Positions 10,974 through 41,637 of a stretch of DNA of 64,000 nucleotides are shown piece by piece. The notes under the pieces are model-generated. The model had not been told where the DNA came from. It ran no database searches and was given only the letters and a program-made list of their open reading frames with translations. A program made the position numbers and the translations under genes. Where the stretch lies: assembly GCA_965248195.1 (NCBI GenBank), contig CBDFIQ010000001.1:224001-288000 (forward strand), in the 5' to 3' direction. Position 1 is the stretch's first letter, and every line of letters starts with the position of its first letter. Origin of the DNA: Longimicrobiales bacterium (GTDB lineage: Bacteria; Gemmatimonadota; Gemmatimonadetes; Longimicrobiales; Gaopeijiaceae).

Positions 10974-11075
10974 GCTGGCGCCTACCGGCCCGCTCTCGGA
11001 TGTTGACCTCGGTTCGATCCTGGAGTACGCCCGTGTCCGATGCTGTAGCCCGCCTAGACGTCGCCCTGAAGGGCC
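10974..11075 (+). promoter_or_regulatory. Promoter/leader module A, copy 1 (with kinase-like first codons)
   Basis: TGGCGC-N17-GATGTT GACCTCGGTTCGATCCTGGAG...GTG TCC GAT; near-identical to 12707, 19139 and 41569 copies. Confidence 0.75.
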
Positions 11076-11659
11076 TCAAGACTCTGCTCCCAGCGAGCTT
11101 GTTTCTTCTCCAAATGGGCTGCGGCCAGAGTAGGGGCGCGCGACCCCTTCCTCCCCTACCGGCCGGCGTGACGGCCGACGTCTCGAAGGTGTCCTACATC
11201 GTGAGGGGCACCACGGTCCCGGAGATACGTGAGTCCCTCCGCGCGGCCGCCACCGGAACTCTGGGCGCGGACACGGTCGGACTCCACAAGTCGAGGCTCA
11301 ATCTAGAGTTCGCGTATACGCAACAGGGGAGCTACTGCGAGATGGTCGAGGTCACCCTCGAGCTCGAATCGGCGATCCAGGTGCCGCAGTGGACCGAGCG
11401 TGGGCGGGCGGACTTCAGGGTGGTCGCCATGTGGGATAGGTACATCAGAGCCGTGCGCGCCCACGAATACACCCACCGGGAGCACCTGTACCGCCGCGCC
11501 AGGGACATCTTCCAAGAGCTGTACCGTATCAAGAGTCCGACGTGCGCCTCCATGCAATCGAAGATCACATCGACCACAGCGCGCATTAACGACCGGTATG
11601 GGCGCCTGAGCAAACAGTTCGACGAGGATAGCCGCATCGCGTGGCCCCCGAGTGAGTGA
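11033..11659 (+). CDS. DUF922-like secreted Zn-dependent protease (probable lipoprotein)
   Basis: YIVRGTT, VPQW, WDRY...HEYTH (HExxH); possible lipobox QMGC. Confidence 0.72.
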   Translation: MSDAVARLDVALKGLKTLLPASLFLLQMGCGQSRGARPLPPLPAGVTADVSKVSYIVRGTTVPEIRESLRAAATGTLGADTVGLHKSRLNLEFAYTQQGSYCEMVEVTLELESAIQVPQWTERGRADFRVVAMWDRYIRAVRAHEYTHREHLYRRARDIFQELYRIKSPTCASMQSKITSTTARINDRYGRLSKQFDEDSRIAWPPSE

Positions 11660-11704
11660 CATCTGCGCGGTTGTGACCGCCGCCGTGGACAGAGAACCCG
11701 GGTT

Positions 11705-12706
11705 TCAAACCGGGAGATCATCAAAGAAGGGACGAGCGATTGGAGTTGGCGACTCCTGATCTGCCAGGTGGATGGGGAAGCCGCCTGCCTCGAGCCCGGC
11801 CGAGACCTGTTTCATGAACTCATCGGCCTTATGACACCACACGTTGCCCGCAGTCGAGCAGTAGCGGTGCATACCTTGGAATCCGAGAAGCTCAGGTGCC
11901 AGTCGGTCGGCGATGTCCCATCGCCAACCTCTTGCGAAGACCCAAAGGGCGAACACGGGCTTGAAGGTGGGTCGGTGAGTCTGCGTCTTCCAGTCCCATA
12001 CAAGGCCCGACAATCGATCTACCAGTTCTCGGAATCCCCGCTTTATTTCTCGGTCGGTGGGGCCAGGTGCTCTGGGGTCTAACCGCCGGAGGCCGATGTT
12101 ATCGAGACAGTCCGAGAGTTCCATGACTACTACTCCGTGGCCAACCGTCGCGAGCTGATGGCGGGCCTTGCGGAGGCAATCGAATGCTCCTCGTTCGGAC
12201 GTGGGATGCTTCACCTCGACGCCATACGACAGGGCTCCGGGTCTAACGAGAAAATCAGGGCCGTCGTCGCTGAAGCGGACTCGCGGATTGAGCCCGCCGG
12301 CTGTCATGACCGCTCCGAACCAAAGCTGAGTCTGAAACTGACGCGGGGCACCACCTGCCATCGGGTCTTCAATCGGTCCTCCCGAAGCGGTGGCCAACCC
12401 TCTCGTTAGCCGGTCGGACACGTCCTTGGGCAGGGCATTCGAGACATCCCTGAAGTCCCGAGCCGTGAGGATTGCCTCCCCCACTTCCGCCAGCGCATCC
12501 TCCCCGGCCGGATACGCACCAACGGTGGCAGTCGAATTGAGGATATCGGCGCATTCCTTCAACCGACTCCCCTCTTTTGATGCGATGCCGAGTTCGTCGA
12601 ATCGTGCAATAGCCGCACGCAGCGCTTCTTCAAGCGAGAGCAGCTGTTCGACGACAACGCGCTTCTCGTCTGGCAGTGGGAGAAACTCCCGCTCGGCCGT
12701 ATACAT
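11705..12706 (-). CDS. Hypothetical protein with PD-(D/E)XK nuclease-like motif
   Basis: 333-aa ORF with RBS; GPDFLVRPGALSYGVEVKHP. Confidence 0.6.
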   Translation of the reverse strand: MYTAEREFLPLPDEKRVVVEQLLSLEEALRAAIARFDELGIASKEGSRLKECADILNSTATVGAYPAGEDALAEVGEAILTARDFRDVSNALPKDVSDRLTRGLATASGGPIEDPMAGGAPRQFQTQLWFGAVMTAGGLNPRVRFSDDGPDFLVRPGALSYGVEVKHPTSERGAFDCLRKARHQLATVGHGVVVMELSDCLDNIGLRRLDPRAPGPTDREIKRGFRELVDRLSGLVWDWKTQTHRPTFKPVFALWVFARGWRWDIADRLAPELLGFQGMHRYCSTAGNVWCHKADEFMKQVSAGLEAGGFPIHLADQESPTPIARPFFDDLPV

Positions 12707-12765
12707 GGACTCCCCACTCCGAGATCAGACCGAGGTCAACATCCGAAAGCGCGAGCCCCCGGCCA
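12707..12765 (-). promoter_or_regulatory. Promoter/leader module A, copy 2
   Basis: TCGGATGTTGACCTCGGTCTGATCTCGGAG directly upstream of the ATG at 12706. Confidence 0.75.
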
Positions 12766-13599
12766 TCAGTGACTCATCGCATAGACGATGAAGTTAACGC
12801 CCATCTCGTACGCGTAGGTCGAGTATTTGAGCGGGTAGCGGGGATTGTCCGCCCACTCCCAGGCGTCGCCGAGGTCGGTGTTCCAGTTGATGACCACCAT
12901 CAGTCGGCCGTTATCGTCGTGGATCCCTTTGACCATGGGGACGTACCCGTCTGACTGGTGCGTCGGCCCGCCACGGACGCCGTTGCCGACGTTGGGGACC
13001 TGGAGGATCTCGTCGATCTCGTAAAAGGCCGTGAATATCGGATGGTCGAGGGACAGGTCGACGATCTCGTAGCCGGGAAGCACCGACCGGATCTCGTACT
13101 CCCAGTTGGCCCACTGCCGGGAACCCCAGAAGTCGTCGATGACCAGAAAGCCGCCGGCGAGGAGGTAGTCCCGGAGCCCCACAGTCTCTGGCTCGGTGAG
13201 GGCCATGCGGCCGACCTCGAGAGCGTACAGGAAAGGGAAGCGCCTGACCGAAGGGTCGTCCAAACGGATGACGTGCTCATGCTCGTAGGCGTCGAGGTTC
13301 GAGAGCAAACGGTCTATGAACGAGAGGAAGATCCGGTCGGCCTTGGGGTAGTCCGTGGCCCATGATCCTCTCCTCCGCCTGAACCCTCTCCCGTATCCTG
13401 TATACTGCACGCGTGAGAAGTAGAACTCTCGCGGCACTCCCTCTGCCCGCTGGGTGGCTCGGTCGCGCTCCTCACGCGACGGCTGGTCCCACGGATCCGG
13501 CACAGCCGTGAGTAGCGTAAGTGCGACGGCACTCAAGAAGAATAACGATGCCCGCACCACACACTCCGATTCAGGTCGGCTTTGGCTTGCTTCCTCCAC
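12766..13599 (-). CDS. DUF4159-domain protein (start uncertain, possibly 13557)
   Basis: WATDYPKAD, LRDYLLAGGFLVIDDFWG, NTDLGDAWEW. Confidence 0.85.
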   Translation of the reverse strand: MEEASQSRPESECVVRASLFFLSAVALTLLTAVPDPWDQPSREERDRATQRAEGVPREFYFSRVQYTGYGRGFRRRRGSWATDYPKADRIFLSFIDRLLSNLDAYEHEHVIRLDDPSVRRFPFLYALEVGRMALTEPETVGLRDYLLAGGFLVIDDFWGSRQWANWEYEIRSVLPGYEIVDLSLDHPIFTAFYEIDEILQVPNVGNGVRGGPTHQSDGYVPMVKGIHDDNGRLMVVINWNTDLGDAWEWADNPRYPLKYSTYAYEMGVNFIVYAMSH

Positions 13600-13731
13600 C
13601 CGCGATGGGTGTCCAGGAACCTACGACTCCCGGACCCAGGGGGTAAAGTCCGGGTCGACTGCGCTTAAAGCCAGCCTCCGACCTGGGGGCCTACCATGGG
13701 CTGAAAAGGTGGACATACGAAATGCGCCCCC

Positions 13732-16214
13732 CTACTCGTAGCGCACCGCCTCGAGCGGATCTACACGGCTAGCGCGGCGAGCGGGTATCCACACGGCCGC
13801 CAGCGCGATCAGGGTCAAAATGACGGGCACGCTCACAAACACGGGAACATCGCGCGGCTCGACTTCAAATAGGACCGACGCCAGGACATTCGCGAGGAAG
13901 TAAGCCGCGCCCAGTCCGACCGCCACACCAACGATCACGAGCGCCATACCCTGCTTGATGACCATAGTCCTGACCTTGCCCGACTCGGCGCCCATCGCCA
14001 TCCGAATGCCGATCTCTTGAGTGCGTTGCTGCACCGAGTAGGCCATCAGGCCGTAGATCCCGATCGCCGCGAGCAGAAGCGCCGAGCCGCCGAACACGCT
14101 CATCAGCAACATGTTGACCCGCCGGCGTGAAGTGGAGATCGACACGATGTCCTCCATCGACTCAACGTCGGTCACGGGTAGTCCAGTTGATTGGCGCAAC
14201 TCCTCCTGGATGGCCGCCGAGATGTTCCCGGGCTCCACCTCGGTCCGCACCACCCAGGCCATCGGCGTAATGCCGACGTTGAGCGCGTTCAAGCACGTCG
14301 GGCACTTGGGCCTGCGGCATGTACAGGGTCGGGCGTGGTTCGCGGGCGAGTCCCAGGGCGCGCACATTGGCCGCGATGCCGATGACCTGGCGAACCGGCT
14401 CCTCGGCGAGCTCTCGCATGATTCCAGCCCCGCCGCCGATATGCACGCGGTCTGCCAGCGGGTCGGCGCCGTCCGTCCAATACTCGTCCGCCAGGGCTTG
14501 ATTGATGATCACTACTGATGGAGCGTTGCCATCATCCAAGTCGGTGAAGTCGCGGCCCCGGACGATGGGAATCTCGAAGGTTTCGAAGTAGCCGGACGAG
14601 CTCATCATGATGCTCGCGCTGCCGGTGAAGGGGTTCTCGTTGGTCCGCCCGATGATGTTGAAAGGAAGGCCGTATCCGCCTTGCAGGGGAACGCAACACG
14701 TGGCGGTCGCTTGGGCCACACCGGGGATGGAACGGATGCGTTCCAGCGCCAGCCGCGCGGTTTGCTCGACGCCATCCGACGTCAGAAACCGTGGGCCGCT
14801 GAGCGAAGTCCGCATGGTCAGCACGTTGGTGGCCGTGAAGCCCGGATCGACTTGACCGATGGCGAGCGACGTGCGGATGAGCAGCCCAGCGCCGATCAGC
14901 AACACGACGCACAATCCCAACTCGGCAACAACGAGCAGCGAGCGAGTCTTGTTTTGACGAAAGCCGCTGCCCGAGCGGCTGCTCGCGTCCTTGATGACGG
15001 CGTTGAGGTCCGTGCGCGAGGTCACCAAAGCCGGCACTAGACCAAACAGAACGCCGGTGATCAACGACAAAGCGACCGTGAAGCTCACGATGCGCCAATC
15101 CATCCCCATCAGCGTGCCCTCGTCTCCAAGCCGCGGCAATCCCGCCGTATTCACGGACAACAGCGCGCGTATCCCGAGGAAACCGACCACCAGGCCCAAC
15201 ACACCGCCCGTCAGGGACAACAAGACGCTTTCAGTCAGCAGTTGCCGTAAGATCCGCCAGCGCCCGGCGCCGAGCGCCGAGCGCCGAGCGAATCGCGATT
15301 TCACGGCTCCGTCCGGTGGCACGGACCAGGAGCAGGTTTGCGACGTTCGCGCAAGCGATCAACAGCACGAAACCAACCGCGCCGAACAAGATCCACAAGG
15401 TCCTTCGCGCCCCGGGGCCGACCATCGTTTCCTGTAAGGTCCGAACCGTGAACCCCCCGTTTTCGCCCAACGCGTTCGGAAAGCGCTCGCGATACTCGTC
15501 AGCTGAGACTTCCATGCGCTCTTGCGCCTGCTCGAGCGTCACCCCAGGCCGGAGTCTCCCCACCGATTGAAAGTAGTGGCCCTGATCGGTCGTGTTCGGA
15601 TCGAACTGGAACGGAACGAAGAGCTCGGGATCACCAAACTCGCGCAAATCGAAGCCCTCACCGACGATACCAATGATGGTGTACGGGTCCCCGCTCAAGG
15701 ACAGGCTCTTGCCGATAATGTCCGGGTCGGCCGCAAGGCGCCGGTTCCAAAAGTTGTAGCTGAGGACCGTGGTTCTCGCCTCGCCGGGCAGATCCTCCTC
15801 CGGAGCAAACCCGCGTCCTTGTATGATCGGAACGCGGAACGCGCGGAAGTAGGCTTCCGACACCTGGCTCGCGGTGACCCGCTCGGGTACGTCGCCGGCT
15901 GTGTAGTTCAGCGAGTTGTTGCGATAGGCCGCGACGTCCTCGAGTACCTCGGTCTGGGCGCGCCAATGCATGAATTTCGCCGGCGAAGCTCCCCCGCCTG
16001 CGTTGCCGATCTCCCGATTACTGTTCATCAATCGGACCATGCGGTCCGGCTCGGCAAACGGGATGGGCTTGAGCACGACCGTGTTTACGACCGAAAAGAT
16101 CGCCGTGTTGGCTCCGATGCCGATCGTCAGCGCCGCAACCGCGGTGAGGGTGAAGCCCGGGCTCTCTCGGAACATCTTGAGCGCGTGTTTCAGGTCCTGG
16201 AGGAAGGCTTGCAT
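13732..16214 (-). pseudogene. Duplicated-domain MacB/FtsX-type ABC permease (ADOP-like) with two frameshifts
   Basis: IGIGANTAIFSVVN, LLIACANVANLLL, QQRTQEIGIRMAMGA, ARRASRVDPLEAVRYE spread over three frames; +7 nt near 15270-15290, +1 nt near 14291. Confidence 0.88.
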
Positions 16215-16394
16215 CTTGGTGGCTTCCAGCCTGTCGCCGAGTGAGCTGACCGTGGGCCAGTATGAAAAAACGCGTGCTATTGAAAGGTTCCCGCTGGTGA
16301 GGTTGCGTTGGGGATCTTTCGCTGGGTCTGCCGTTGGTGTTGCGGTAGGCGGGATCTGCTCGCGGTTTGTCGATCAGCGCCGCATCTCGAGCGC

Positions 16395-16457
16395 ATGAGC
16401 GAGGAACGCACCCGACGACTCTCCGCGATCGTGTTCACGGACATGGTGGGCTACACG
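16395..16457 (+). pseudogene. 5' remnant of a class III adenylate/guanylate cyclase gene
   Basis: MSEERTRRLSAIVFTDMVGYT, then similarity stops. Confidence 0.7.
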
Positions 16458-16570
16458 CATGTCACTTTCTCCCGAAACGAAGTATGCTATCAGGGTTGCA
16501 GCGCATGGTAGACCGTCGCGGCAGCCCGTCACTCGTGATCGAGGCGCGCGCGATACCGAAGGAGGAGAAG

Positions 16571-17560
16571 ATGCCCAGGAAGCTGATCACACTATTCGGT
16601 CTCGTTGCGCTGGTCGCGCTGTCCGCCTGCGGTGGTGGCGCGCCAGCCACCGAGGTCGCTGAAGAGACCCCGGTCGTCGACGTCGCCACAGCGGATCCAA
16701 AGAGTCAATTCGCCGGCGCGTGGACGCTGGTCAAGATCGAGCGGTTTGATGCCGACGGCGACCTGCTGGCGCCCCCTATCGAGGACCGCGTCGGCTACAT
16801 CATCTACGACCCGGCGGGCTACATGGGTGTCACGATCATGCAGCCTGACCGGCGGCCGTATGCCGGCAACCAGCGGACGCCCGAAGAGGCGCTCGCTACC
16901 TATTCGACCTACAACTCGTACTTCGGCACGTTCACCGTCAACGAGACCGAGGGGTTTCTGACGCACCACCTGGAGGGCAGTCTGAACACCCGCGGCGCCG
17001 GCTCCGACTACCAGCGCTTCTATACGTTTTCGGGGAATCGGCTGACGCTGCAGCCGCCGGCGGGTGACAACGGTAACAAGACGCAGCTCACCTGGGAGAA
17101 GCTCCCGGACTTGCCCGAATCCGAGCTCACCGAGACGCACAAGCGGCTGTTCGGCTTCTACCGGATCGAGTCGCTTTCGCGCCGGATCGTATCAGGCGAG
17201 TCGGTCCCGGCCAACCAGTACGAAACCGCGTTCATCATCTACGCTCCCTCCGGGCACATGGCGGTGCATCTGATGCGACCGGGCCGCGAGCCGTACGCCG
17301 GCACGGGGCCGACGCCGGAGGAGGCGCTCGCAGCCGTACAGACGTACGGCAGCTACTTCGGTCCGTTCTCGGTGCATGAGGACGAGGGCTATCTGGTCCA
17401 TCATCGGATCGGCAACCTGAGCCCGGCGGGGACCGGGATCGATGCCCAACGTGGCTACGAGCTGACCGACACGCATCTCACCCTGCGACCGCCCGTCGGG
17501 ACCGACAGCGAAGGCCGTCAGGTGCAAAGCGCGCTGAGGTGGGCACGGATCAGCGACTAG
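16571..17560 (+). CDS. Lipoprotein with two lipocalin-like (Lipocalin_5-type) domains
   Basis: Lipobox LSAC; repeated GAWTLV...GYIIYDPAGYM...SYFGTF / GFYRIE...IIYAPSGHM...SYFGPF. Confidence 0.82.
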   Translation: MPRKLITLFGLVALVALSACGGGAPATEVAEETPVVDVATADPKSQFAGAWTLVKIERFDADGDLLAPPIEDRVGYIIYDPAGYMGVTIMQPDRRPYAGNQRTPEEALATYSTYNSYFGTFTVNETEGFLTHHLEGSLNTRGAGSDYQRFYTFSGNRLTLQPPAGDNGNKTQLTWEKLPDLPESELTETHKRLFGFYRIESLSRRIVSGESVPANQYETAFIIYAPSGHMAVHLMRPGREPYAGTGPTPEEALAAVQTYGSYFGPFSVHEDEGYLVHHRIGNLSPAGTGIDAQRGYELTDTHLTLRPPVGTDSEGRQVQSALRWARISD

Positions 17561-17592
17561 AGCTCAGAGCCGGCCGCGACCGGCTCAGCCCT

Positions 17593-19173
17593 TCAGGACA
17601 GCGGCGGCGTGCTCGTCGGGGGCCGCCGAATGCGCGTGGCCTGTTCGAAGGAGTACGCGAGTTTGATCAGCGTAGGCTCGCTCCACTGGGGGCCGAGCAG
17701 CTCGATACCGATCGGAACACCCAGCGGGGCCGATGGCGTCGATGCCGAAAAACCGCCGGGAAAGGTGATCGCCGGGAAGCCCGTGCTGTTCGAGAGCACG
17801 CCGTTGCGCTCGAGCTGGTCCTCCCCGATCGGCGCCACCAGGCGCCGCTGGTGCGGATATAGTACCGCGTCCAACTCGTTGTCCGCGATCACGGTCATCA
17901 CTGCTTGCCGCAGCTCCTCGCGTCGAAGAAATCGAACGCGATACTCAGGGTCGGCGAGACCGTTCTGGACGCTCTGGTCCGCCTCGAGGCCACGTCGGAG
18001 TGGCGGGTGGAACTCACCCCGCTCGATGAACTCCTCGAGGCTGCGGACCGGAGCGGCAGGACCCAGGCTCGCCAGGTAGCGATTGAATGCGATCTTGAAC
18101 TCGAAGCCCGAGAGCGCGATGCCCCGTGTGAGGTCGGCGAAGTTCGGAATACGGAGGCGTACGACGGTGGCGCCCGCCTCGGTCATCGTCGTGATCGCCT
18201 CCTCGACGACGGCGTTGACCTCCTCGTGGATCGCATCTTGTCCGACGAGATCCAGCACCAGGCCGATGCGAGCTCCTTCGAGGCCGCTCGGGTCGAGCGA
18301 CTCCGTGTAGCTGGGAGGTATCTCCCCCGTGCTGAAGGCCGTGATCGGATCGGCAGGGTCGTAACCGGCGATGACGTCGAGCATCCGGGCGGCGTCCTCG
18401 ACCGTGCGCACGATCGGCCCCACCTCGTCTTGAGTGAAGCTGATCGGTATGACGCCGTCTCGGCTCACGAGGCCACGGCTCCCACGTATCCCGACCAGAC
18501 TCTGAGCCGAGGCTGGCGACCGGATCGACTGCCCGGTGTCGCTTCCGGTCCCCAGCACGCCGAAGTCGGCAGCGATCGCGGCACCCGTCCCGCCACTGGA
18601 TCCGCCCGGTGTGCGGCCGAGGTCGTACGGATTCCGGGTCTGTCCGCCCAAAGAGCTGATGGTCGTCCCTCCCCGGGCCAGCTCGGTGAGGTTCGACTTG
18701 GCCAAAACAAGCGCTCCGGCCTCCCGCAGTCGCCGCACGACGAAGGCGTCGTCTGGCGGGACCGACTGGGCCAGGGCGAGCGAGGCGCCCGTCGTAGGCA
18801 TATCGGCGGTGTCGTAGTTGTCCTTCACGATCACGGGAATGCAGTGGAGGGGCCGGCCCCCGGTCCCGTCTGCGGCATAGAGACGGTCCATCTCCCGGGC
18901 GGTGTCGAGCGCACGCGGGTTCACCGTCAGAATCGCGTTGAGCCCCGGCCCCTGGTCGTCGTACGTCTCGACCCGGCGGAGGTAGTACTCGACCAATTGC
19001 GCGCAGGCGAGAGTACCCGACGCGAAGGCGTCGTGGATCCCTCGGATGGTAGCTTCTTCCAGGGAGAAGGTGCCGCTTCCCTCACTCCCCCCTCCAACTG
19101 TCTGGCCCCCGCAAGCGGCCAGGCCGAGCGTAAGAACCAGGGCTGCATTGAGGCGAGTGACAGGATCGGGCAT
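17593..19173 (-). CDS. Amidase-signature family lipoprotein
   Basis: VKDN, PGGSSGGTGAAIAA, GSDTGQSIRSPAS; lipobox LAAC. Confidence 0.93.
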   Translation of the reverse strand: MPDPVTRLNAALVLTLGLAACGGQTVGGGSEGSGTFSLEEATIRGIHDAFASGTLACAQLVEYYLRRVETYDDQGPGLNAILTVNPRALDTAREMDRLYAADGTGGRPLHCIPVIVKDNYDTADMPTTGASLALAQSVPPDDAFVVRRLREAGALVLAKSNLTELARGGTTISSLGGQTRNPYDLGRTPGGSSGGTGAAIAADFGVLGTGSDTGQSIRSPASAQSLVGIRGSRGLVSRDGVIPISFTQDEVGPIVRTVEDAARMLDVIAGYDPADPITAFSTGEIPPSYTESLDPSGLEGARIGLVLDLVGQDAIHEEVNAVVEEAITTMTEAGATVVRLRIPNFADLTRGIALSGFEFKIAFNRYLASLGPAAPVRSLEEFIERGEFHPPLRRGLEADQSVQNGLADPEYRVRFLRREELRQAVMTVIADNELDAVLYPHQRRLVAPIGEDQLERNGVLSNSTGFPAITFPGGFSASTPSAPLGVPIGIELLGPQWSEPTLIKLAYSFEQATRIRRPPTSTPPLS

Positions 19174-19232
19174 GGGCGCGCTCCGGGATCAGACCGAGGT
19201 CAACATCCGAGAGTGGGCCGGTGGGCGCAAGC
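19139..19232 (-). promoter_or_regulatory. Promoter/leader module A, copy 3 (with MPDPVTRLNAAL)
   Basis: TTGCGC-N17-GATGTT GACCTCGGTCTGATCCCGGAG CGCGCCC ATG. Confidence 0.78.
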
Positions 19233-19270
19233 GGAAGCCTCCTCGTGGCTCGCGTGCGGCACTGGGGGCT

Positions 19271-20863: not shown

Positions 20864-20864
20864 C

Positions 20865-21227
20865 CTAGGTGCCGTGAAAGGCAACAGGCTTGCCGCGTGG
20901 CTCCGGCTCGAGATCCGGTTGGCTCGAGTCCGTGAAGACCTCGTGCAACTCGAGCTGGCTCGGCTGCACGAACGCTTCTTGGGGAAGCGTGCCGGAGCGT
21001 GCATGCCCTTTCACAAACTCGTCCGACTGCACCCACGCATCGAACGCGGCCCGGGATTCCCACAGAGTCAAGACAATGTAGGGGTCTCCCGGATTGACTG
21101 GGCGCAGCACCTTGTTCCAGATAAACCCGGGCATCCCGTCCACCAGCCGCGCCCGTGTCTGGAAGCGCTGCTCGAACTGCTCGGCGTACTCCGGCACCAC
21201 ATAGATCCGGTTCATGGCGGTGATCAT
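20865..21227 (-). CDS. ABM-family (IsdG/HmoA-like) monooxygenase, putative haem-degrading
   Basis: MNRI, FEQRF..R, MPGF, WES..AF..W..S..F..GH with Asn/Trp/His triad. Confidence 0.85.
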   Translation of the reverse strand: MITAMNRIYVVPEYAEQFEQRFQTRARLVDGMPGFIWNKVLRPVNPGDPYIVLTLWESRAAFDAWVQSDEFVKGHARSGTLPQEAFVQPSQLELHEVFTDSSQPDLEPEPRGKPVAFHGT

Positions 21228-21304
21228 TCTCGGTCACTCTCCATTGGGTTTGCGTAGCGGCGTTCGAGGGCCGCGTTGAGACGGGCGACGGCATCGGGCA
21301 TGGT

Positions 21305-21341
21305 GGACAAGATGCTTCCAGAGCGTGTGGGGCGGCAAGCG
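21305..21341 (-). promoter_or_regulatory. Promoter module C, copy 1
   Basis: 34/37 identical to 48021-48057; TTGCCG-N18-CATCTT on the minus strand. Confidence 0.65.
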
Positions 21342-21362
21342 TCTCACACGCTCCCCGGGGGG

Positions 21363-25037: not shown

Positions 25038-26144
25038 TCAATCACGGCGAGTGTCACTCGATCCCTGCGCTTCCATTCTTTCCTCATAACGCGCGCCGCT
25101 CAAAACACCAGCCAAACTGTAGTTGCCCTCGTGGCAGGCGTACTCGTAGAGTTGGGCGTCGAACTTCTTGATCGGGATCTCTCCTCCCCACGCTTCGGTG
25201 TACATCGTCGGATCCTCAACGGTGAACTCATAGAGGATCGTCTCTTCGTCGACCCGAGTGAAGCGCTCGGTCACCCTCATTTGCCCTGACGGGGCAACAC
25301 CCCGGAGAGACTGTCGTGGATTGATGTTCGTGGTCTCGACCACGAGCGCGTCGCCTTCCCACCGACCCCAGGAGTCGCCGAACCACGGGCGGACGTCCTC
25401 GGGCATCGGGTTGGGCTCGCCAAACCGGATAATCCGCACGTCGTGGATCATCTCCGACATGATCATCAGGTAATCGGCCGTCTGTACGATGATGTAGTTG
25501 GCGTTGTAGGCCCCGGTGGGGACCATGGGGGGTCCGACAGGGGAACCGAAAAGGATGCAGCGCTCGGCGAATGGTCTCAGCTCCGGGTGGTCGTATCGGC
25601 CAAATTGGCCCCTGAAGTCCGTGGACTCCTGGACCCGCCGCTCGCCCTCCGGCGTGAGGGCCGGACGGCGCCCATTCGCCGGATGGGTGAGCAGAGAGGC
25701 TCTGGGCTCGCCATCGACGATCGCTACCCGCGAGCCCCGCTCCCAATAGACCTCGTTGTACTCGTTGCCGCTCAGTCGAGCCTCATTGGTGGACCCCTCG
25801 CGGGACGCCCTTCCGCACATTGTGGTTCCTGGGTTGGCGGGGCACCCATCTCCTGGCCGCTCCATCTCCTCGACTTCCTCCCGCGTGAACACCGGGCCCC
25901 TACCCTCTTCCCGCTCAAACGGGGTGAGCGTCGAGTTCGACCAGTTCCCCTGAAAATCCGGATGGCCGTCGGGTGTCCTGGGGACTTCCCACTTTTCGGC
26001 GTCGGAGGCTCGAGCCTGCGCCGCCGCGGTCGAGACGAAGCCGGGCGCTGCGGTTACGCAGAGAACAGCCAGAACCAGAAGCAGAGCGGAGTAACGCGAC
26101 ATCACTTCATGGCCTCGACCCACCACCGCCATACGCTTGCTCAT
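25038..26144 (-). CDS. Exported conserved hypothetical protein
   Basis: Signal peptide; PRTPDGHPDFQGNW, ERC, GDSWGRWEGDALVVET, YEYACHEGNY. Confidence 0.85.
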   Translation of the reverse strand: MSKRMAVVGRGHEVMSRYSALLLVLAVLCVTAAPGFVSTAAAQARASDAEKWEVPRTPDGHPDFQGNWSNSTLTPFEREEGRGPVFTREEVEEMERPGDGCPANPGTTMCGRASREGSTNEARLSGNEYNEVYWERGSRVAIVDGEPRASLLTHPANGRRPALTPEGERRVQESTDFRGQFGRYDHPELRPFAERCILFGSPVGPPMVPTGAYNANYIIVQTADYLMIMSEMIHDVRIIRFGEPNPMPEDVRPWFGDSWGRWEGDALVVETTNINPRQSLRGVAPSGQMRVTERFTRVDEETILYEFTVEDPTMYTEAWGGEIPIKKFDAQLYEYACHEGNYSLAGVLSGARYEERMEAQGSSDTRRD

Positions 26145-26189
26145 TTCAACCTCCATTCCAGCGGGATCCACGACACTGACCGGCACTCT

Positions 26190-26247
26190 TTTCAAAGAAC
26201 CCTCCGAGGGGTGGGTATAACGTGAGGGCCGGGACCGAAGCGGTCAA
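26190..26247 (-). promoter_or_regulatory. Promoter/leader module B, copy 1
   Basis: TTGACC-N17-CACGTT ATACCCACCCCTCGGAGGGTTCTTTG. Confidence 0.65.
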
Positions 26248-26308
26248 TATGGCCGGACCACCCCCGTGGCCCTTATTGGCTTGCTGATCTTCGAGCAGCA
26301 CCAGTGAG

Positions 26309-26370
26309 TTGCCCGGCTTGGTACGGGCCCCCACGTTATCCCGACCCGCCAGAGGGCTTTTGGTTTACTT
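26309..26370 (+). promoter_or_regulatory. Promoter/leader module B, copy 2
   Basis: TTGCCC-N17-CACGTT ATCCCGACCCGCCAGAGGGCTTTTGGTTT. Confidence 0.7.
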
Positions 26371-28347: not shown

Positions 28348-28371
28348 GCCCGATCGTCCAGCCCCTCAGGG

Positions 28372-31441: not shown

Positions 31442-31445
31442 TGTC

Positions 31446-31830: not shown

Positions 31831-33999
31831 TCACGGCAGCGCCAGCGCCACCAACGAGCCCGGAAAGTCTGTGCGGATGCTGCCAATCTGCACCACGATG
31901 TACTGCTTGCCTTGGTGCATGTAGGTCATCATCCCGTACTGGCCGGGGGCCGGAAGCTCGACGCTCGCCAGGATCTCGCCCGTCCGCTTGTCGCGAGCAT
32001 GGAGCTCCAACGGGGCGTCGGGGAGAACCTGCGTGCCTCCGCTGCTGAGCGCCCTGGTCTGGACCAAAAGATCACCCATGACCATCTGGATCGATGAGCC
32101 GGCTCCTCCCGTATTGGGAACGTCCACTCCCGCCAGAAGAGGGTGATTCCTGATCCGCTCAGGAGTCTGGCCGACCGGCAACGACCAGACCTGCCTGCCC
32201 GTGTTCATCTGGAAGGCGGAGAGCTGGTTGTCGAGGGGCTTGTAGAGCCGCAGGCCCTCGATCGTCTCCAGCCGCCCCTCCCCTGTGCCACCCCCGGGTA
32301 GCCACGCTGCCACCGTGGTGCCCGTGGTGGGAGTATAGTTGGGAGTGGCACCGCCCTCGTCAGGTACGGCGTACTCCGTGCGTTCTTCGTCCAACCCGTT
32401 GGTGGGCGCCATGAACTGGCGGGCGCTGCAGGTCCGGCTGTGCGACGCGTACATCATTCCCGTGCTGGGATCCGCGACCGCGGGACGGGGGATGTTCAAC
32501 CCCCCCTGGCAACCGACGTTGTTGACGAAGTCGTTGTCGTGGTCGAAGGGAAGCGGTGGCACGTAGAGGCCCCCGACCTGGAACTGACTCAGCATGATCT
32601 GCGCCTGCGCATTCAGCTCCGGAGTGTAGTCGATGAGGTACTCTTCGGTCAGCCCGTCCACTACGATGGGGTCCAACGGTTCCGGCAGGGTCGGGTAGGG
32701 CTGAGTGGCCGCAGTATAGTTGCCAGGGACTTGGGTCTGAATGACCGGGCGCTCCTCGATGGGCCAGATGGGCTCGCCGGTCGCCCGGTTGAACGCGAAG
32801 ACGAGACCTTGCTTCGTGTTCTGGATCACCGCGGGAATCTGCTCACCGTCCACCGTCAGATCCATCAGAATGGGCGCCGCAGGAAGGTCATAATTCCATT
32901 GGTCGCTGTGGTGGATCTGGAAGTGCCACCTCCGCTCGCCCGTCTGGACGTCCAACGCGAGGAGGCTGCCTCCGAACAGGTTGTGCCCCGGGCGATGGCC
33001 CGCGTACGTCTGGACCGTCGAAGCGTTCGTCACGAGGTACACGAGCCCCAGCTCCGGGTCGGCGGACGCGGGAGCCCACGACGACAGGTCCCCCGACCAC
33101 TGCCAAGCGTCATTCTCCCACGTTTCGTGCCCGAACTCGCCGGGCCGCGGGATCACGTGGAACTTCCAGAGCAACTCACCCGTTCTGGCATCGACCCCCA
33201 TGATGTCGCCCGGTACGTTCTGGATCCGGGTCTGGCCATAGCTGGGCTCGTGGCCCACGAGCACCACGACCACCCCGTTCACCACGATCGGCGGCGATGA
33301 ACTGGTGACCATGCCGAGCTCCCTCGGGACCCCATAATTGGCGTCGTACGGTCCTTCGTCCCAGCGCTCCCACTGGCCCCAGCCGTCTAGGAGGTCCGGC
33401 ACCATATCCCGGACACCGGTCTGTGAGAAACCGTCGAGCGGTACGGGCTCGCCCCAGCTCTCCAAGGGCCGGCCCGTCTTCGCGTCGAGCGCCCAGAGGA
33501 AGAAGGCAGGGCTAGTGAAATAGATCACTCCGCGCCCATCCACCTCGCCGTAGGCGACGCCTTTCCCGTAGGCCCGCCTGGGAGAGCGCAGAAACCTGAC
33601 GGTCTCGGGCTCGCGAAAGACCCAGAGCGTCTCGCCCGTGGCGGGATCGATCGCGACCACCTGCCGGCGCGGAGTGACCACCGTGTAGAGGATTCCGTCG
33701 ACGTAGATCGGGGTGGACCGGGCAAAGTAGTCGACGTTGGGGCCGAAGTTATCGCCCCTCCAGACCCACTGCTGCTCGAGATCCTCGAAGTTGGCGGCGT
33801 TGATTTGGGTCAGGGGCGAGGAGCGGGTGTGCCCGGCATCGCCGCCCAGATAGCGCCACTCGCCATTCTCTGTCCCTGGCAGGCGCTGAGCGAAGGCGGC
33901 CGCTGCCGTCGCCATGAAGAGTGCGAACGCGAGGCCGAGGCAAAACACGAGACTCTGCGCTCCAAAGGGTCGAAGCTCAACCTTTATCATCTTAGTCAT
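31831..33999 (-). CDS. PQQ-binding beta-propeller dehydrogenase (quinoprotein glucose-DH-like), paralogue 1
   Basis: EWRYLGGDAGHTRSSPL.QIN, WHFQIHHSDQWNYDLPAAP, TYMHQGKQYIVV. Confidence 0.9.
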   Translation of the reverse strand: MTKMIKVELRPFGAQSLVFCLGLAFALFMATAAAAFAQRLPGTENGEWRYLGGDAGHTRSSPLTQINAANFEDLEQQWVWRGDNFGPNVDYFARSTPIYVDGILYTVVTPRRQVVAIDPATGETLWVFREPETVRFLRSPRRAYGKGVAYGEVDGRGVIYFTSPAFFLWALDAKTGRPLESWGEPVPLDGFSQTGVRDMVPDLLDGWGQWERWDEGPYDANYGVPRELGMVTSSSPPIVVNGVVVVLVGHEPSYGQTRIQNVPGDIMGVDARTGELLWKFHVIPRPGEFGHETWENDAWQWSGDLSSWAPASADPELGLVYLVTNASTVQTYAGHRPGHNLFGGSLLALDVQTGERRWHFQIHHSDQWNYDLPAAPILMDLTVDGEQIPAVIQNTKQGLVFAFNRATGEPIWPIEERPVIQTQVPGNYTAATQPYPTLPEPLDPIVVDGLTEEYLIDYTPELNAQAQIMLSQFQVGGLYVPPLPFDHDNDFVNNVGCQGGLNIPRPAVADPSTGMMYASHSRTCSARQFMAPTNGLDEERTEYAVPDEGGATPNYTPTTGTTVAAWLPGGGTGEGRLETIEGLRLYKPLDNQLSAFQMNTGRQVWSLPVGQTPERIRNHPLLAGVDVPNTGGAGSSIQMVMGDLLVQTRALSSGGTQVLPDAPLELHARDKRTGEILASVELPAPGQYGMMTYMHQGKQYIVVQIGSIRTDFPGSLVALALP

Positions 34000-34164
34000 T
34001 TCTCATTCCTCCCTTGAAAGAGCAGAGTCGGTACCCCCTATAGTGGGTACCCCCTATGGAATTGCAACGCGATGGAACGTGGACGGTAGGTCGGGCACGA
34101 CATCGGCGCAACGCCCACTGGGCTTTGGTTTTTTCTACCGCCCCCTCCCACGAGAATCGCCGCC

Positions 34165-34225
34165 TTGACGGGTCTGGACCGCCCCTTCACGTTATCCCGA
34201 TCCACCAATGGGCCTTGGTTTTTCA
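34165..34225 (+). promoter_or_regulatory. Promoter/leader module B, copy 3
   Basis: TTGACG-N17-CACGTT ATCCCGATCCACCAATGGGCCTTGGTTTTT. Confidence 0.7.
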
Positions 34226-34236
34226 CCGGAGTCGAG

Positions 34237-36243: not shown

Positions 36244-36321
36244 AGTAAGCCGCCATGGCAAGCTCGTTAGACCGGCATGCGTAGGTTCTCAATTTCACTG
36301 CAACGATTCCAAGGAGATTTC

Positions 36322-37596
36322 ATGCACTTCGCTCTTGGAGGTTTCGCCCTTTTTGCCATTGCTGGAGGACTCGGCGCTCAAACGACCGTCCTGCATTGCG
36401 GCTCCTTGATCGATGCGGAAGCCCTCGCCATACGGGGCGAACGCACGATCGTCGTACAAGACGGACGAATCGCTAGCGTGAGCGAGGGGTTCGCTCCGTC
36501 GAATCCCAACTCAACCGTCGTCGATCTGCGCGACCAGACCTGTATGCCGGGTCTGATCGATCTTCATGTTCATCTTTCATCTGAACAGAGTCCGAACAGA
36601 ACCGTCGAGCGGTTCACATTGGATCCTGCAGACTACGCGTTTCGAAGTGTTGGAAACGCAGAAAGGACTTTGATCGCCGGGTTCACGACCGTTCGTGACC
36701 TGGGCAACGTGGTGGGCCGGGCATTACGCGACGCCATCAACGAGGGTCGAATCCCAGGCCCACGGATCTTCCAGGCGGGTCGCATTGCCTCGACCGGCTC
36801 TCATATGGATCCGACCAATGGCTGGCGGACCGACCTCATGAGTAATCCTGGCCCGATGGAGGGGATTATCAACAGCCCCGAGGAGGCACGGCAGGCGGTG
36901 CGGCAACGTTATAAGGAGGGCGCCGACCTCATCAAGATTCCCGCGACAGGAGGCGTGCTGAGCCTCGCTCCAAACGGCGACGGCCCCCAGATGACGGAAG
37001 AGGAAATCCGCGCAATCGTGCAGACCGCCAGCGACTACGGGTTCCATGTAGCGGCTCATGCACATGGCGCAGAGGGAATCAAGCGCGCAATCCGAGCAGG
37101 TGTCCGGACCATTGACCATGGCTCGCTCATGGACGAAGAAGGGATGGAGCTCATGAAGGAGTATGGAGCCTACCTCGTCCCCACGATCAGTGCCGGCAGG
37201 TTTGTGGCTGAACAAGCCGAAATCGAGGGCTTCTTTCCGGAGATGATTCGGGTGAAAGCCGCAGCGATCGGACCCATGCTCATGGGGACCGTCATACGGG
37301 CATACGCGGCAGGCGTCAAAATCGCGTTCGGAACGGACGCCGGGGTCCCCCCCCATGGCACCAATGGTCAGGAGTTTGGACTCATGGTTGAAGCAGGCAT
37401 TCCCGCTATCGAGACGATTCAGTCGGCGACGCTGACAGCAGCGGTCGTGCTCGGGATGGAAGATCAGCTCGGCTCGGTGGAACCTGGCAAGATCGCGGAT
37501 ATTGTCGCCGTACCAGGCGACCCCACCACCGACATCTCGGTTATGGAGCGAGTTGACTTCGTCATGAAGGAGGGTGTCGTCTACCGGTCCCCATAG
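36322..37596 (+). CDS. Exported amidohydrolase (Xaa-Pro dipeptidase-like)
   Basis: PGLIDLHVHL, AGFTTVRDLG, AAHAHG, IDHG, FGTDAG, GKIAD. Confidence 0.93.
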   Translation: MHFALGGFALFAIAGGLGAQTTVLHCGSLIDAEALAIRGERTIVVQDGRIASVSEGFAPSNPNSTVVDLRDQTCMPGLIDLHVHLSSEQSPNRTVERFTLDPADYAFRSVGNAERTLIAGFTTVRDLGNVVGRALRDAINEGRIPGPRIFQAGRIASTGSHMDPTNGWRTDLMSNPGPMEGIINSPEEARQAVRQRYKEGADLIKIPATGGVLSLAPNGDGPQMTEEEIRAIVQTASDYGFHVAAHAHGAEGIKRAIRAGVRTIDHGSLMDEEGMELMKEYGAYLVPTISAGRFVAEQAEIEGFFPEMIRVKAAAIGPMLMGTVIRAYAAGVKIAFGTDAGVPPHGTNGQEFGLMVEAGIPAIETIQSATLTAAVVLGMEDQLGSVEPGKIADIVAVPGDPTTDISVMERVDFVMKEGVVYRSP

Positions 37597-37726
37597 ACGG
37601 CCGTTTCAGACCCTGGTCCCTGCTTGCGCCCTCTTTCCCCCTCACGACAGATTGGGCCCGACCAACCTGGTCATGCTCCGAGAAAGTCGGGCCACTCAGG
37701 AATCGACCCAAAAACGAGGTGATCCC

Positions 37727-40312
37727 ATGTCCTGTTCATCCATCCGGCGGGCTGCCGCCAGGCTCGGCCGGCTCGCACCGGTCTCGGCTCTCAGTGTGGC
37801 GGCCTCTGCCGGCTTCGCACCCTCGGCCGTGGCACAGGAGAGCCCACTGCCCAGCATCGAAAACAAGACCCAGAACGCCGATCGCATGGAGGGGTTCTTC
37901 ACCCTCTACTGGGAGGATTCCAGCGGGTCTCTGTACTGGGAGATCGACGAGCTGGGTACCGAGTTCCTCTATCAGATCTCCATGGGGTCGGGACTTGGAA
38001 GCAATCCGGTCGGCATCGACAGGGGTCAGCTAAGGGGCACACACGTTCTGGAGCCGAGGCGCATCGGTCCCCGCGTACTCCTCATCGAGCCCAACTACCG
38101 GTTCCGCGCGCGCAGCGACAACCCGACGGAAGCTCAAGCGGTGCGAGATGCCTTCGCACCCTCGGTGCACTGGGGTTTCGACATCGTGGCCGAGACCGGG
38201 GACCGGGTTCTGGTGGATGCGACGGAGTTCTTCCTTCGTGACGCCCGTGGCGTCGTGGAGCAGATCGCGCAGCGGAACCAGGGTCGCTTTGAGCTCGATC
38301 CGTCCCGGAGCGCGCTCCACTTGCCCGCGACTCGATCTTTCCCGGAGAATACCGAGGTCGAGGCCATTCTCACCTTCACGAGCGCCGAGCCCGGTGGGTT
38401 GGTCCGGGGCGTAGCCGCGACCGGCGGAGCCATAACACTGCGGCAGCACCACTCCTTCATCCGGCTACCCGATGACGGCTACCGCACCCGCACCGCGGAC
38501 CCGAGGGTAGGGGTGAACGGTCCCACGGTGTACGACTACTCTACCGCCATCGACGAGGACACGCGCCTCAGATGGGCGGCGCGCCATCGCTTGGAGAAGC
38601 GCAATCCCGGGCCCGGGCCGTCCGAGCCCCTCGAGCCCATCGTCTACTACGTGGATCCGGGCACACCGGAGCCGATTCGCAGCGCGTTGATCGAAGGAGC
38701 GAGCTGGTGGAACGAGGCCTTCGAGGCCGCGGGATTCATCGACGCCTTCCAGGTCGAGGTGCTGCCCGTAGGCGTGGACCCGCAGGACATCCGCTACAAC
38801 ATGATCCACTGGACCCACCGCCGAACGCGTGGCTACTCCTACGGGAACACCGTGGCGGACCCGCGCACGGGTGAGATCGTGCGTGGGGTGGTGAACCTCG
38901 GGAGCCTTCGGCTCAGGCAGGACTACCTCCACGGCCAGGGTATGGTGGCCCCCTTCCCCGGAGGAATCTCCTCAGTGGATGGTGGCGGGTACTTCGATTT
39001 CGCTGTGGCCCGGGACGGACTAGGCGCCTACTACGAGACGGGCGATTTGGCAGGGGCGCCGAATTTCGAGTACCTGGCTCAGGTGGTGGACGAATCGGAG
39101 GCGGTAGAGATGGCACTGGCGCGAGTTCGTCAGCTCTCGGCCCACGAGGTCGGCCATACGCTCGGATTCCCTCACAACTATATTGCGAGCGCTTACGGAC
39201 GGGAGAGCGTGATGGACTATCCCGCGCCGCTAGTCGAGATCGATGAGGATGGCAACCTCGATCTGTCCAACGCCTACGTGCAGCGGATCGGAGAGTACGA
39301 CAAGCTCTCCGTGAACTGGCTCTATCGTGAATTCCCGACCGGCACGGATGAAGTCAATTCGTTGGCCCTGATCGCTCAGCGGGGGGTCGAGGAGGGCCTC
39401 ATCTACATGGGGCACACGAACAACAACTTCATCGGGGCAGGTCACCAGTATGCCGGCGTCTGGGACAACGGCGTCAACCTCGTCGACCACCTCAAGCTCG
39501 AGATCCGGGTGCGCGAGATCGGGCTCGAACGCTTCGGAGTCAATGCGATTCGGACGGGCGAGCCACTTTCCAATCTGGAGTACGTGCTGCTCCCTCTGTA
39601 CATGCATCACCGCTTTCAGCTCCGCTCGGCGGCCCAGAGCCTCGGGGGTGCAGACTACCGGAACGCGGTGAAGGGAGACGGCCAGACCCCCTTCACGATC
39701 GTTCCCGGCGAGGAGCAGCGCGACGCCCTAGAGACCATCCTGTCCACCCTTACGGTCGACTTCCTGGCGCTCCCGGAGGACATCGTGTCCTTGATCCCGC
39801 CACCGGCCTACCGGTATGGTGAAGGCGAGGCCTTCCCTGGTCATACCGAGCTTCTGTTCGATCCTCTGGGAGCCGCTGAAGCCGCGGCCAACTTCTCCGT
39901 CGGGGAAATCCTCCACCCGCAGCGCATGGCCAGGCTGGTGGTCTTCGGGAGCATGGGGGACTACCCCGACCTGGAGGAGGTCACCGATCGGCTGATCGAG
40001 GCTACGTGGAACTCGCCCCAGGCGGCGGACGAGTACCGGCAGCGCGTCATCCATGGCGTTCAGCGCTCGGTGGCCGATCGCATGATGCAAGAGGCGAGCA
40101 GTGCCGGTAACCCTGCCGAGGTCCGTGCGGTTCTGTCCGATCGTCTCGATAGGCTCGCCGCGGGCATCGAGAGCACGTCGGCGCCGTCACCGCACCAGCG
40201 GCTCGTGGCCGCGGACATTCGCCGCTGGCAGGCGCGCATCGAGAACACCGTGCCCGGACCGCAGCTGCAGATGCTCGCCGGCGATCCGATCGGAGGAAGC
40301 AACCGGAACTGA
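37727..40312 (+). CDS. Exported zinc-dependent metalloprotease (DUF5117/DUF4953-type)
   Basis: HEVGHTLGFPHN metzincin motif with SVMDY Met-turn. Confidence 0.92.
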   Translation: MSCSSIRRAAARLGRLAPVSALSVAASAGFAPSAVAQESPLPSIENKTQNADRMEGFFTLYWEDSSGSLYWEIDELGTEFLYQISMGSGLGSNPVGIDRGQLRGTHVLEPRRIGPRVLLIEPNYRFRARSDNPTEAQAVRDAFAPSVHWGFDIVAETGDRVLVDATEFFLRDARGVVEQIAQRNQGRFELDPSRSALHLPATRSFPENTEVEAILTFTSAEPGGLVRGVAATGGAITLRQHHSFIRLPDDGYRTRTADPRVGVNGPTVYDYSTAIDEDTRLRWAARHRLEKRNPGPGPSEPLEPIVYYVDPGTPEPIRSALIEGASWWNEAFEAAGFIDAFQVEVLPVGVDPQDIRYNMIHWTHRRTRGYSYGNTVADPRTGEIVRGVVNLGSLRLRQDYLHGQGMVAPFPGGISSVDGGGYFDFAVARDGLGAYYETGDLAGAPNFEYLAQVVDESEAVEMALARVRQLSAHEVGHTLGFPHNYIASAYGRESVMDYPAPLVEIDEDGNLDLSNAYVQRIGEYDKLSVNWLYREFPTGTDEVNSLALIAQRGVEEGLIYMGHTNNNFIGAGHQYAGVWDNGVNLVDHLKLEIRVREIGLERFGVNAIRTGEPLSNLEYVLLPLYMHHRFQLRSAAQSLGGADYRNAVKGDGQTPFTIVPGEEQRDALETILSTLTVDFLALPEDIVSLIPPPAYRYGEGEAFPGHTELLFDPLGAAEAAANFSVGEILHPQRMARLVVFGSMGDYPDLEEVTDRLIEATWNSPQAADEYRQRVIHGVQRSVADRMMQEASSAGNPAEVRAVLSDRLDRLAAGIESTSAPSPHQRLVAADIRRWQARIENTVPGPQLQMLAGDPIGGSNRN

Positions 40313-40439
40313 GATGGGCGGTGTGCGTGGCCGGGTGGGCGGCCTCTCCAGACCGTGGCGATCGGTTCCGCCGCGGCACATGGAGGAGCCGTCCCTTTGG
40401 GGTCGAGAGAAGCTGCCCATTTGGGTCGAAAAGTTCGGG

Positions 40440-41577
40440 TCAGATCCTCAGAAAGGTCTTCTTCCGGTACAAGAAGTACAGGAAGGCCCACTCGACAAGG
40501 ACGAAGCCGATCCACCACAGCACGCGCTGGGCCGGCTCGCCGAACGATGACAGCAAGCCCTCGAAGAAGAAGTTCGTGGTGTAGGCGATGTCGATGAAGC
40601 CGCCGGCCATGTAGATAAGAATCGAGTTCATGCCGATGACCACGAAGAAGAACGCCCACCTGGTGTATCCCCATACGTCGATCACCAGGTAAAACAGGGC
40701 GAGCAACAGCAGGCTCCAACCACCGGCGAAGAGAACGAACGAGCTAGACCACAGGTTCTTGTTGATCGGAAAGGCGAAGCCCCAGAGATAGCCGAGCACC
40801 AGGCCGGCGACACCGGCTCCGGCGAGCAGGAGGGCTTTACGCTGGCGCGTCACCCCGGGGAGGTCGCGGCGCAACAAGCGTGCCGGCGAACACACCGAGC
40901 AGCGCGGTAGAGATGGCCGGTATCGTGGACAGCAGCCCCTCGGGGTCGTGCACACCGAGGTACAACCTGCCGGGCAACAGCATCCGGTCGACGTAGCCGG
41001 CCAAACTGCCGTCGAGGGTCAGTTGCCCCGCCCCGAAGCCGGGAACAGGAACCAGCTTCATCGCCGCCCAGTAGCCCACCAGCAGGCCGACGAACCACAT
41101 CACCTGGCCGCGCAACTTGGTGTTCACCACGATCAGCCCAGCGAACACGTAGGCGAGTCCGATGCGACCCAGCACGCTGGCGAAACGCGTCTCGGCGAAG
41201 CTCACCCGGAACAGGCCGTTGTTGTAGATGATGCCGAGAACCACCAGGATGAGGCCGCGCCGCACGACGTGCAGCATGAGCTTCTTCTTGTCCTCGCCCC
41301 GCTCCACGCGCCGCGTCAATGAGAACGGCATCGCCACCCCGGCGATGAACAGGAACAGCGGGAAGATCATGTCATAGAAGACGAATCCGTCCCACTCGAC
41401 GTGCACCAACTGGGTCGAGGCCCAGATCGCCACCGCCCAACCGGTGAGGTCGGCAAGCGAATGGACGATCCCTTCGCCGCCGACGATCCAGAACATGTCG
41501 AAGCCGCGCAGTGCGTCCAGCGACACGAGGCGGCGAGAAGGCGCCGAGGGTGGCGATGGCGGAAATTGATCGGACAG
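40440..41577 (-). pseudogene. Heparan-alpha-glucosaminide N-acetyltransferase-like membrane protein with one frameshift
   Basis: SLDALRGFD, HVEWDG, DMIFPLFLF, DPEGLLS, PINKNLWSSS, IGMNSI; +1 nt near 40875; probable CTG start at 41577. Confidence 0.85.
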
Positions 41578-41637
41578 GGGCGCACTCCGGGCTCAGACCG
41601 AGGTCAACATCCGAGAGCGAGCCGGTACGCGCAAGCA
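41569..41637 (-). promoter_or_regulatory. Promoter/leader module A, copy 4
   Basis: TTGCGC-N17-GATGTT GACCTCGGTCTGAGCCCGGAG TGCGCCC CTG TCC GAT. Confidence 0.78.

Follow-up and report, generated by a model that had tools for sequence, protein, structure and literature searches.

Introduction

Putative mobile promoters are closely similar upstream sequences (at least 80% identity over at least 50 nt) that precede unrelated genes, and how they move is given as unknown in the account that described them (Nijveen, Matus-Garcia and van Passel 2012, PMC3575422). In T4-type phages, the elements named PeSLs are repeated units of a promoter, a Shine-Dalgarno sequence and a start codon located in hypervariable regions, for which integrase-free shuffling has been proposed (Arbiol et al. 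2010, PMC2839356; Comeau et al. 2014, PMC4122927). Here we describe an element with features of both, designated module A, that stands in front of several unrelated genes in a 64,000-nt stretch (the window) of the genome of a Longimicrobiales bacterium (G000). Same-genus relatives used for comparison are G001, G005, G006, G007 and G011; bare coordinates are window positions, and those prefixed C1: or C2: refer to G000 contigs.

Two further bodies of work bear on such elements. Phage mosaicism, put down to illegitimate recombination or to boundary sequences, is described as an exchange of modules one gene long whose joints lie close to gene borders; most joints have no shared boundary sequence, and some fall at repeats of about 50 bp (PMC3029335). 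In HFIR (PMC6382021) and SPDIR (10.1101/2023.11.22.568220), foreign or ectopic DNA integrates through an anchor and/or microhomologies; such events are reported there to be rare in strains kept in the laboratory, with RecA, RecJ and related functions suppressing them. The terms 'promoter', 'synteny' and 'genomic island' do not occur in the main text of a survey of marine Gemmatimonadota (PMC11316326), and no published description of the pattern reported below was found in open-access full text, supplements aside.

Results

A sequence-only reading of the window had placed copies of module A at 10974 (+), 12707 (-), 19139 (-) and 41569 (-), and all four were recovered, with the following extents and parts.

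10962..11074 (+): module A copy 1; upstream remnant 10962-10968, TGGCGC 10976-10981, GATGTT 10999-11004, GGAG 11022-11025, GTG 11033
12716..12751 (-): module A copy 2, 3' half only; -10-like box 12743-12738, GGAG 12720-12717
19139..19239 (-): module A copy 3; TTGCGC 19230-19225, GATGTT 19207-19202, GGAG 19184-19181, ATG 19173, stub to about 19139
41569..41637 (-): module A copy 4; TTGCGC 41634-41629, GATGTT 41611-41606, GGAG 41588-41585, CTG 41577, three shared codons

The three full copies have a common layout in which TTGCGC or TGGCGC is followed after 17 nt by GATGTT and then by a leader containing GGAG, with the start codon 7 nt further on. This spacing, which had been given for the element as a whole, does not extend to copy 2 (GGAG-N10-ATG), although copy 2 was rightly seen as the core only: it retains 36-37 nt without the -35 box, and its junction lies 14-18 nt beyond the stop of the DUF4159 gene. 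First codons were also said to be shared in frame in three copies. Copy 1 does carry a 14-codon kinase stub in frame with DUF922, but the sharing in the 41569 copy amounts to just three codons after CTG. Pairwise identity is 80% over 95 nt between 10974-11068 and 19138-19232, and 88% over 69 nt between 19164-19232 and 41568-41636; with matches of 88% over 69 nt and 87% over 68 nt, module A lies within the identity threshold for putative mobile promoters. When nhmmer is run against the whole genome, the three full copies score E-values between 3e-13 and 5e-12 and the core-only one scores 1e-4, and the similarity among the four is far above chance. An assembly artefact was ruled out as the source of the repeat: the module is present in 11 other genomes, and a single contig of run X8 covers 11525-12789 in the same arrangement, including the 12707 joint.

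Module A represents the 5' end of the genes of a multicopy Ser/Thr kinase family. A whole-genome count by iterated profile gave 33 copies in G000 (one weak match without boxes was removed and C1:955257 added), and these were combined with copies from G005 (25), G006 (18), G011 (24) and six singles into a set of 106 that leaves out two weak matches and one G011 locus without a central match. A 101-nt query matched all 11 of the other genomes examined from the genus (order Longimicrobiales) and none of 19 genomes outside it. A complete kinase domain follows in one frame behind 11 of the 73 copies from relatives, as the proposed kinase origin would have it, but behind 0 of the 33 in G000 itself; one such module-headed gene encodes an 897-aa protein with Pkinase and PD40 domains. 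This expanded and volatile family has 40 strong matches in G005, 26 in G007, 19 in G011, 14 in G001, 11 in G006 and 8 in G000. In G000, the fragments that match an intact kinase are biased towards its 5' end, coverage falling from 16-19 in the first 90 nt to 4-5 past about 200 nt, a drop that still lies within the conserved domain.

The coding sequences downstream of module A are mutually unrelated, apart from the short stub and the 11 of 106 copies that still head kinases. The start codon of the stub is retained in 17 of the 33 G000 copies and is in frame with a long open reading frame (ORF) in six, so that donation of an in-frame start is a minority outcome genome-wide. Stubs fused in frame to a long non-kinase ORF are found in these 6/33 A copies and in 3/24 copies of module B, one of three sibling families listed below, and most cargo uses its own ribosome-binding site (RBS) and start.

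The two hexamers are strongly conserved across the 106 copies (TTGCGC in 93, GATGTT in 100), while several positions in the spacer and leader vary; their spacing, and the A and T at places 2 and 6 of GATGTT, fit a -10 box of the sigma-70 type. Of 83 A, B and C copies, 75 point towards a co-oriented gene downstream, compared with 55% of 1996 directions of control gaps, as assigned by a crude gene caller. Three relatives (G001, G006 and G011) have a module that breaks off 3-5 nt past GATGTT, which places the ATG of an ABM-family gene 6 nt beyond the box in a leaderless geometry, and the same joint is present in contigs from two other studies. Box conservation, co-orientation and this geometry indicate that module A very probably acts as a promoter, predicted to be of the housekeeping type, in agreement with its earlier designation as an expression element. 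Upstream of some A copies (e.g. C2:1344369-1344492 and C2:1766639-1766745) a spacer of about 120 nt contains a conserved half-palindrome, which is a full 18-bp palindrome in one copy and is a possible operator candidate.

Both ends of module A are nested and continuous, and no fixed crossover point is evident. The 5' ends range from inside the spacer to more than 100 nt upstream and are crowded just outside the -35 box, with similarity extending about 160-250 nt upstream in some copies when indels are tolerated, and the 3' ends are spread continuously from 1 to 360 nt. No hairpin was found on either strand or in the upstream spacer, seven of seven folded A copies being no better than shuffles (z -0.7 to +2.0), and an Rfam scan of the window gave no match. 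Ends typical of an insertion sequence (IS) or a miniature inverted-repeat transposable element (MITE) are also absent, as the original proposal of an integrase-free system presupposed: the longest inverted partner within 400 nt measures 6.9 nt versus 7.0 in mismatched pairs, and flanking direct repeats are 5.8 nt in both modules and controls.

The genes associated with these modules in the window are as follows.

11033..11659 (+): 208-aa DUF922 protein (PF06037) fused to a kinase stub
11705..12706 (-): 333-aa protein that matches no known family; preceded by the core-only copy
12766..13599 (-): DUF4159 gene
17593..19173 (-): amidase (PF01425), 526 aa, first 11-12 codons a kinase stub
20865..21227 (-): ABM-family gene, behind module B
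40440..41577 (-): DUF5009 / HGSNAT-like gene in two frames, split near 40837-40955

The DUF922 and amidase assignments of the sequence-only reading stand, and its acetyltransferase is a DUF5009 gene with a weak match to HGSNAT-type acetyltransferases, for which no DNA match at E<=1e-30 was found across 30 relatives. The 11705-12706 ORF had been called nuclease-like, a label left unsupported by the absence of Pfam and PADLOC matches and by Atlas neighbours that are all unnamed.

Comparison of orthologues reveals several capture stages for the same cargo. The amidase of G011 (92% amino acid identity) has its own N-terminus and neither module nor stub peptide, and that of G006 (91%) has a kinase stub behind module D, whereas the window amidase carries module A and a stub. 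Because the relatives' orthologues lack the module or have another promoter, the head of the window amidase must have been acquired. In G005 the leader of the ABM gene contains no module; the window has module B and its 16-codon stub in front of the gene, and G001, G006 and G011 have the shortened module A. The module B/ABM joint has 4 nt of microhomology. The DUF922 head is also present on the G006 orthologue, which sits in a different neighbourhood, and is missing from three DUF922 homologues (47-54% amino acid identity). The downstream flank of the DUF4159 gene is different in every relative examined.

The accessory DNA around these modules is shuffled one gene at a time. Synteny with G005, G006 and G011 is preserved, wholly or in the core parts, across two 20-kb control stretches that have no detected modules, in alignments several genes long at 79-86% identity. 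Accessory stretches, the window among them, align with these genomes one gene at a time in scattered locations, mostly at 84-99% identity, so that accessory genes are more alike between species than core genes are; one accessory stretch is mixed, between the two patterns. We also compiled 43 relocated blocks, including four rows in which an unintended block was taken, several that repeat one gene, and three chosen because they carry modules. At the 5' end of the block, modules A-D are present in neither genome for 33, in one genome for eight, as different modules for one and as the same module for one. Moreover, a 20-kb stretch with no detected A, B or C copy, though with one diverged promoter-like site, is shuffled just as finely. 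Shuffling therefore does not need the module.

Ends of shared blocks were examined at 69 distinct G000 stop codons, at loci partly picked around modules. Eighteen ends fall inside the ORF. For the 51 distinct genes with a block end outside it, the end is no more than 10 nt from the stop in 32, up to 50 nt away in 14 and further off in five. The median distance is 5 nt at identities of at least 86% and 12 nt at 92% or more, and two blocks of 99% identity end 18-43 nt past the stop; this shrinking of the distance with divergence is what gradual trimming would predict. The next 100 nt past the block end are unrelated (0.50, versus 0.50 in random pairs). The 5' ends lie mostly 18-150 nt before the start, and no common joint motif was seen by eye.

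Candidate factors were also considered. ComEC was found in 4/4 genomes of the genus searched and 0/1 outside, numbers too small to weigh. Ku was discarded as a genus-specific factor, being present in G000 and 4 of 11 genus relatives yet also in 13 of 19 genomes outside the genus. RecT has one strong match in G000 and none over the cut-off in four other genomes searched. A reverse transcriptase (RVT_1) was not found in G000 or G005 and is patchy elsewhere, and as a carrier it was rejected on this ground and because the module includes sequence upstream of the predicted start. G011 has thirteen matches to a single reverse-transcriptase frame of 508 aa, which probably reflect a burst of a group II intron. 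Separately, an IS-sized element (L142:8140-9597; C1:608139-609596) is 99-100% identical among G000, G006 and G011, whose cores are 82-86% identical, and to judge from this identity it was transferred between species very recently.

Sibling modules and a recurrent remnant lie elsewhere in the window.

21252..21341 (-): module B, a second kinase promoter type, ATG 21301, 16-codon stub out of frame with the ABM gene
47985..48057 (-): module B copy, short kinase stub
26195..26247 (-): module C copy, promoter-like repeat
26307..26360 (+): module C copy
34163..34216 (+): module C copy
50768..50821 (+): module C copy
44267..44334 (-): module D, promoter-like repeat, before a PQQ-dehydrogenase gene
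16324..16348 (+): 3'-end remnant of a class III adenylate/guanylate-cyclase gene; second copy 63197-63221 (-)

Genome-wide there are 24 copies of B (also a kinase head), 26 of C (source not found) and three of D, and hybrids among promoter modules occur. Remnants of the 3' end of the adenylate-cyclase family also recur and are often positioned upstream of module A at other loci. At C2:1344316 (-) (L129:8476-9234), module A is separated from an adenylate-cyclase-family gene by an IS that lies in a CTAG site; in G006 this gene has no interruption. An N-terminal remnant of another multicopy family is present in 16 short copies (e.g. C1:453761-453829) and is fused directly to module A in G005 (L022) and G006 (L051), and a C-terminal remnant in 11 copies (e.g. 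C2:2552559-2552631) derives from what we take to be an S24 peptidase/repressor gene. A fragment just upstream of one A copy, at C2:1141480 (-), resembles a tyrosine recombinase C-terminus in its motif. Separate from module A, G000 has about 16 attC-like repeats of roughly 100 nt (e.g. C1:47807-47915 and C2:1615072-1615171) and 33 copies of a repeat of about 305 nt with similar ends (e.g. C2:1886988-1887295 and C1:626200-626506), the latter probably a MITE-like element.

Three other features of the window were noted. A MacB/FtsX permease gene (13732-16214, -) is broken by two frameshifts; at 14295 three other runs differ by one base and run X1 does not, so that this break seems to be real in this strain. 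The product of 25038-26195 (-) has no Pfam match and belongs to an unnamed family whose paralogues number in the dozens in G005, G006 and G011. Two PQQ-dehydrogenase paralogues (31831-33999 and 42073-44541, -) are 87-92% identical in parts and 10.2 kb apart.

Discussion

We have moderate confidence in an explanation in which kinase promoters are reused after kinase decay, through short-homology or microhomology recombination and selection, within a phage-like mosaicism. The sequences directly show the kinase origin of module A, its nested ends, its unrelated cargo, the absence or replacement of the head at orthologues, and the shuffling of single genes. Microhomology recombination would sever dispensable kinase genes at arbitrary positions and join the pieces to other genes, and joints that leave the -35 and -10 boxes facing a useful gene would persist. 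Promoter-gene units and bare RBS-ORF units would be exchanged among species, probably through natural transformation, and settle at sites that are not orthologous, with repeated rounds trimming their flanks towards the -35 box and the stop codon. The 50-250 nt that copies share may sometimes serve as a crossover point, as a by-product. The spread of module A is thus likely to reflect cutting and rejoining of accessory DNA while selection keeps promoters and intact frames. In line with microhomology, overlaps at the joints are 4, 5 and 7 nt in the three clean cases where both parents could be aligned.

Several observations weigh against this explanation. For most joints the two parents are not both available to define the overlap. 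Breakpoints so close to stop codons require very many random events, and a repair defect was ruled out as the cause of the rate because MutS (5/5 genomes) and RecJ (29/31) are present. RNA-library contigs extend upstream of the module and are uninformative about starts or expression. Finally, all four gametes are present at 83 of 91 pairs of module sites among 61 ungapped copies, which fits frequent crossover within the module and a larger role for it as a handle; such near-free assortment would fit recurrent mutation too.

The sequence-only reading had proposed the module as an integrase-free handle for cassette shuffling. In a form without a dedicated enzyme, in the manner of PeSLs, homologous or homeologous recombination between module copies would excise and insert promoter-bounded cassettes as the main engine of cargo exchange, and we regard this as doubtful. 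In its favor, besides the near-free assortment of module sites, identity between copies is no higher within genomes than between them (0.81 versus 0.82), five pairs of loci share the upstream gene and differ in cargo, at least five share cargo and differ upstream, one small gene bounded by two A copies lies in different contexts in G000 and G011, the amidase promoter has been swapped at the stub, and modules are clustered, with 25 neighbours under 5 kb compared with 6.8 expected. One further pair is alike in both cargo and upstream sequence, the latter for just 252 nt. However, neighbours are not co-oriented (same strand in 15/25 under 5 kb, and in 7/9 A-A pairs under 10 kb), the block shared by G000/G011 same-upstream pairs stops ahead of the -35 box in three of four, there is no stem-loop, and the decay of linkage with distance inside the module is not significant (p = 0.09) and is not counted as support. 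Together with the nested ends and the preponderance of module-free relocated blocks, this leaves occasional crossover in the shared sequence as a likely role for the module and argues against the handle as the main mechanism; a dedicated cassette system is not supported. Among the joints listed in assembled run contigs there was no skip from one module to another, which is no proof against circles. A general position of modules next to syntenic core genes was rejected, the shared upstream sequence being one gene of 1.0-1.3 kb.

An undescribed directed mechanism, moving RBS-ORF and promoter units separately with cuts near stops and promoter edges, would account for the block ends abutting stop codons with unrelated sequence beyond, for the 5' ends lying a short distance before starts, and for accessory genes being more alike between species than core genes. 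Yet 18 of the 69 ends fall inside ORFs, the distance to the stop shrinks with divergence, no joint motif was seen by eye, RVT_1 was found in neither G000 nor G005, and we consider such a mechanism improbable. Very improbable, and already contradicted, is an ordinary regulon motif or a non-autonomous mobile element (MITE, IS end or attC-like site). The conserved hexamers, the IS-rich genome and its attC-like repeats, and the GTTRRRY at the -10 box of some variants could be cited in its favor, but the similarity spans the spacer, leader and coding stub, the module is absent from an amidase orthologue, and neither repeats above controls nor hairpins, fixed ends or an Rfam match were found. A broader and tentative idea, which we would not rank as likely, is a cross-species pool of parts in which signalling-family promoters and bare RBS-ORF units circulate separately and are put together in varying combinations in the chromosome, and kinase heads are universal landing anchors that integrate and activate incoming genes; if true, cells would have an equivalent of integrons and phage PeSLs that works without an integrase.

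The pattern touches on how horizontally acquired genes are switched on and how mobile promoters move. In a single genus, each genome has about 80 reused promoter heads whose source can be traced, the same cargo is seen at several stages of capture, and the phage-like single-gene mosaicism in a cellular chromosome is a natural set for comparing promoter capture with homology-anchored insertion.

Unlike integron cassettes (attC/attI), module A has no imperfect-palindrome hairpin, fixed crossover point or co-oriented array, and unlike IS and MITE elements it lacks terminal inverted repeats, target-site duplication and fixed ends. It also departs from an independently arisen regulon or sigma motif in that its similarity exceeds the short boxes and is not kept at orthologues. 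Like the PeSLs as described (PMC2839356, PMC4122927), it sits in hypervariable regions. Its -35- and -10-like boxes are conserved, and a stub start is kept in 17 of the 33 G000 copies. It has no terminator stem-loop or co-oriented arrays, its ends are nested, it resides in a cellular chromosome, and most genes are shuffled here without it. HFIR and SPDIR, in the form reported, are candidates for the joining step. In microhomology-mediated promoter capture (Li and Bock 2019, PMC6614815) and in deletion-born fusions (PMC12803068) a promoter or 5' part is likewise joined to an unrelated gene, which makes both further candidates for steps of the process; those accounts concern single events, whereas here one family gives dozens of heads, at other sites and in other species too.

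Module A fits the sequence definition of putative mobile promoters, including the unrelated downstream genes. Those in the account cited (PMC3575422) are mostly pairs, in contrast to the 24-33 copies per family in three families of one genome, and here the source is traced to kinase paralogues and coding stubs are present, which the paralogue filter of that study would remove. The joints at gene borders resemble those of phage mosaicism as portrayed in PMC3029335, but they occur in the accessory part of a bacterial chromosome, among species with 79-86% core identity.

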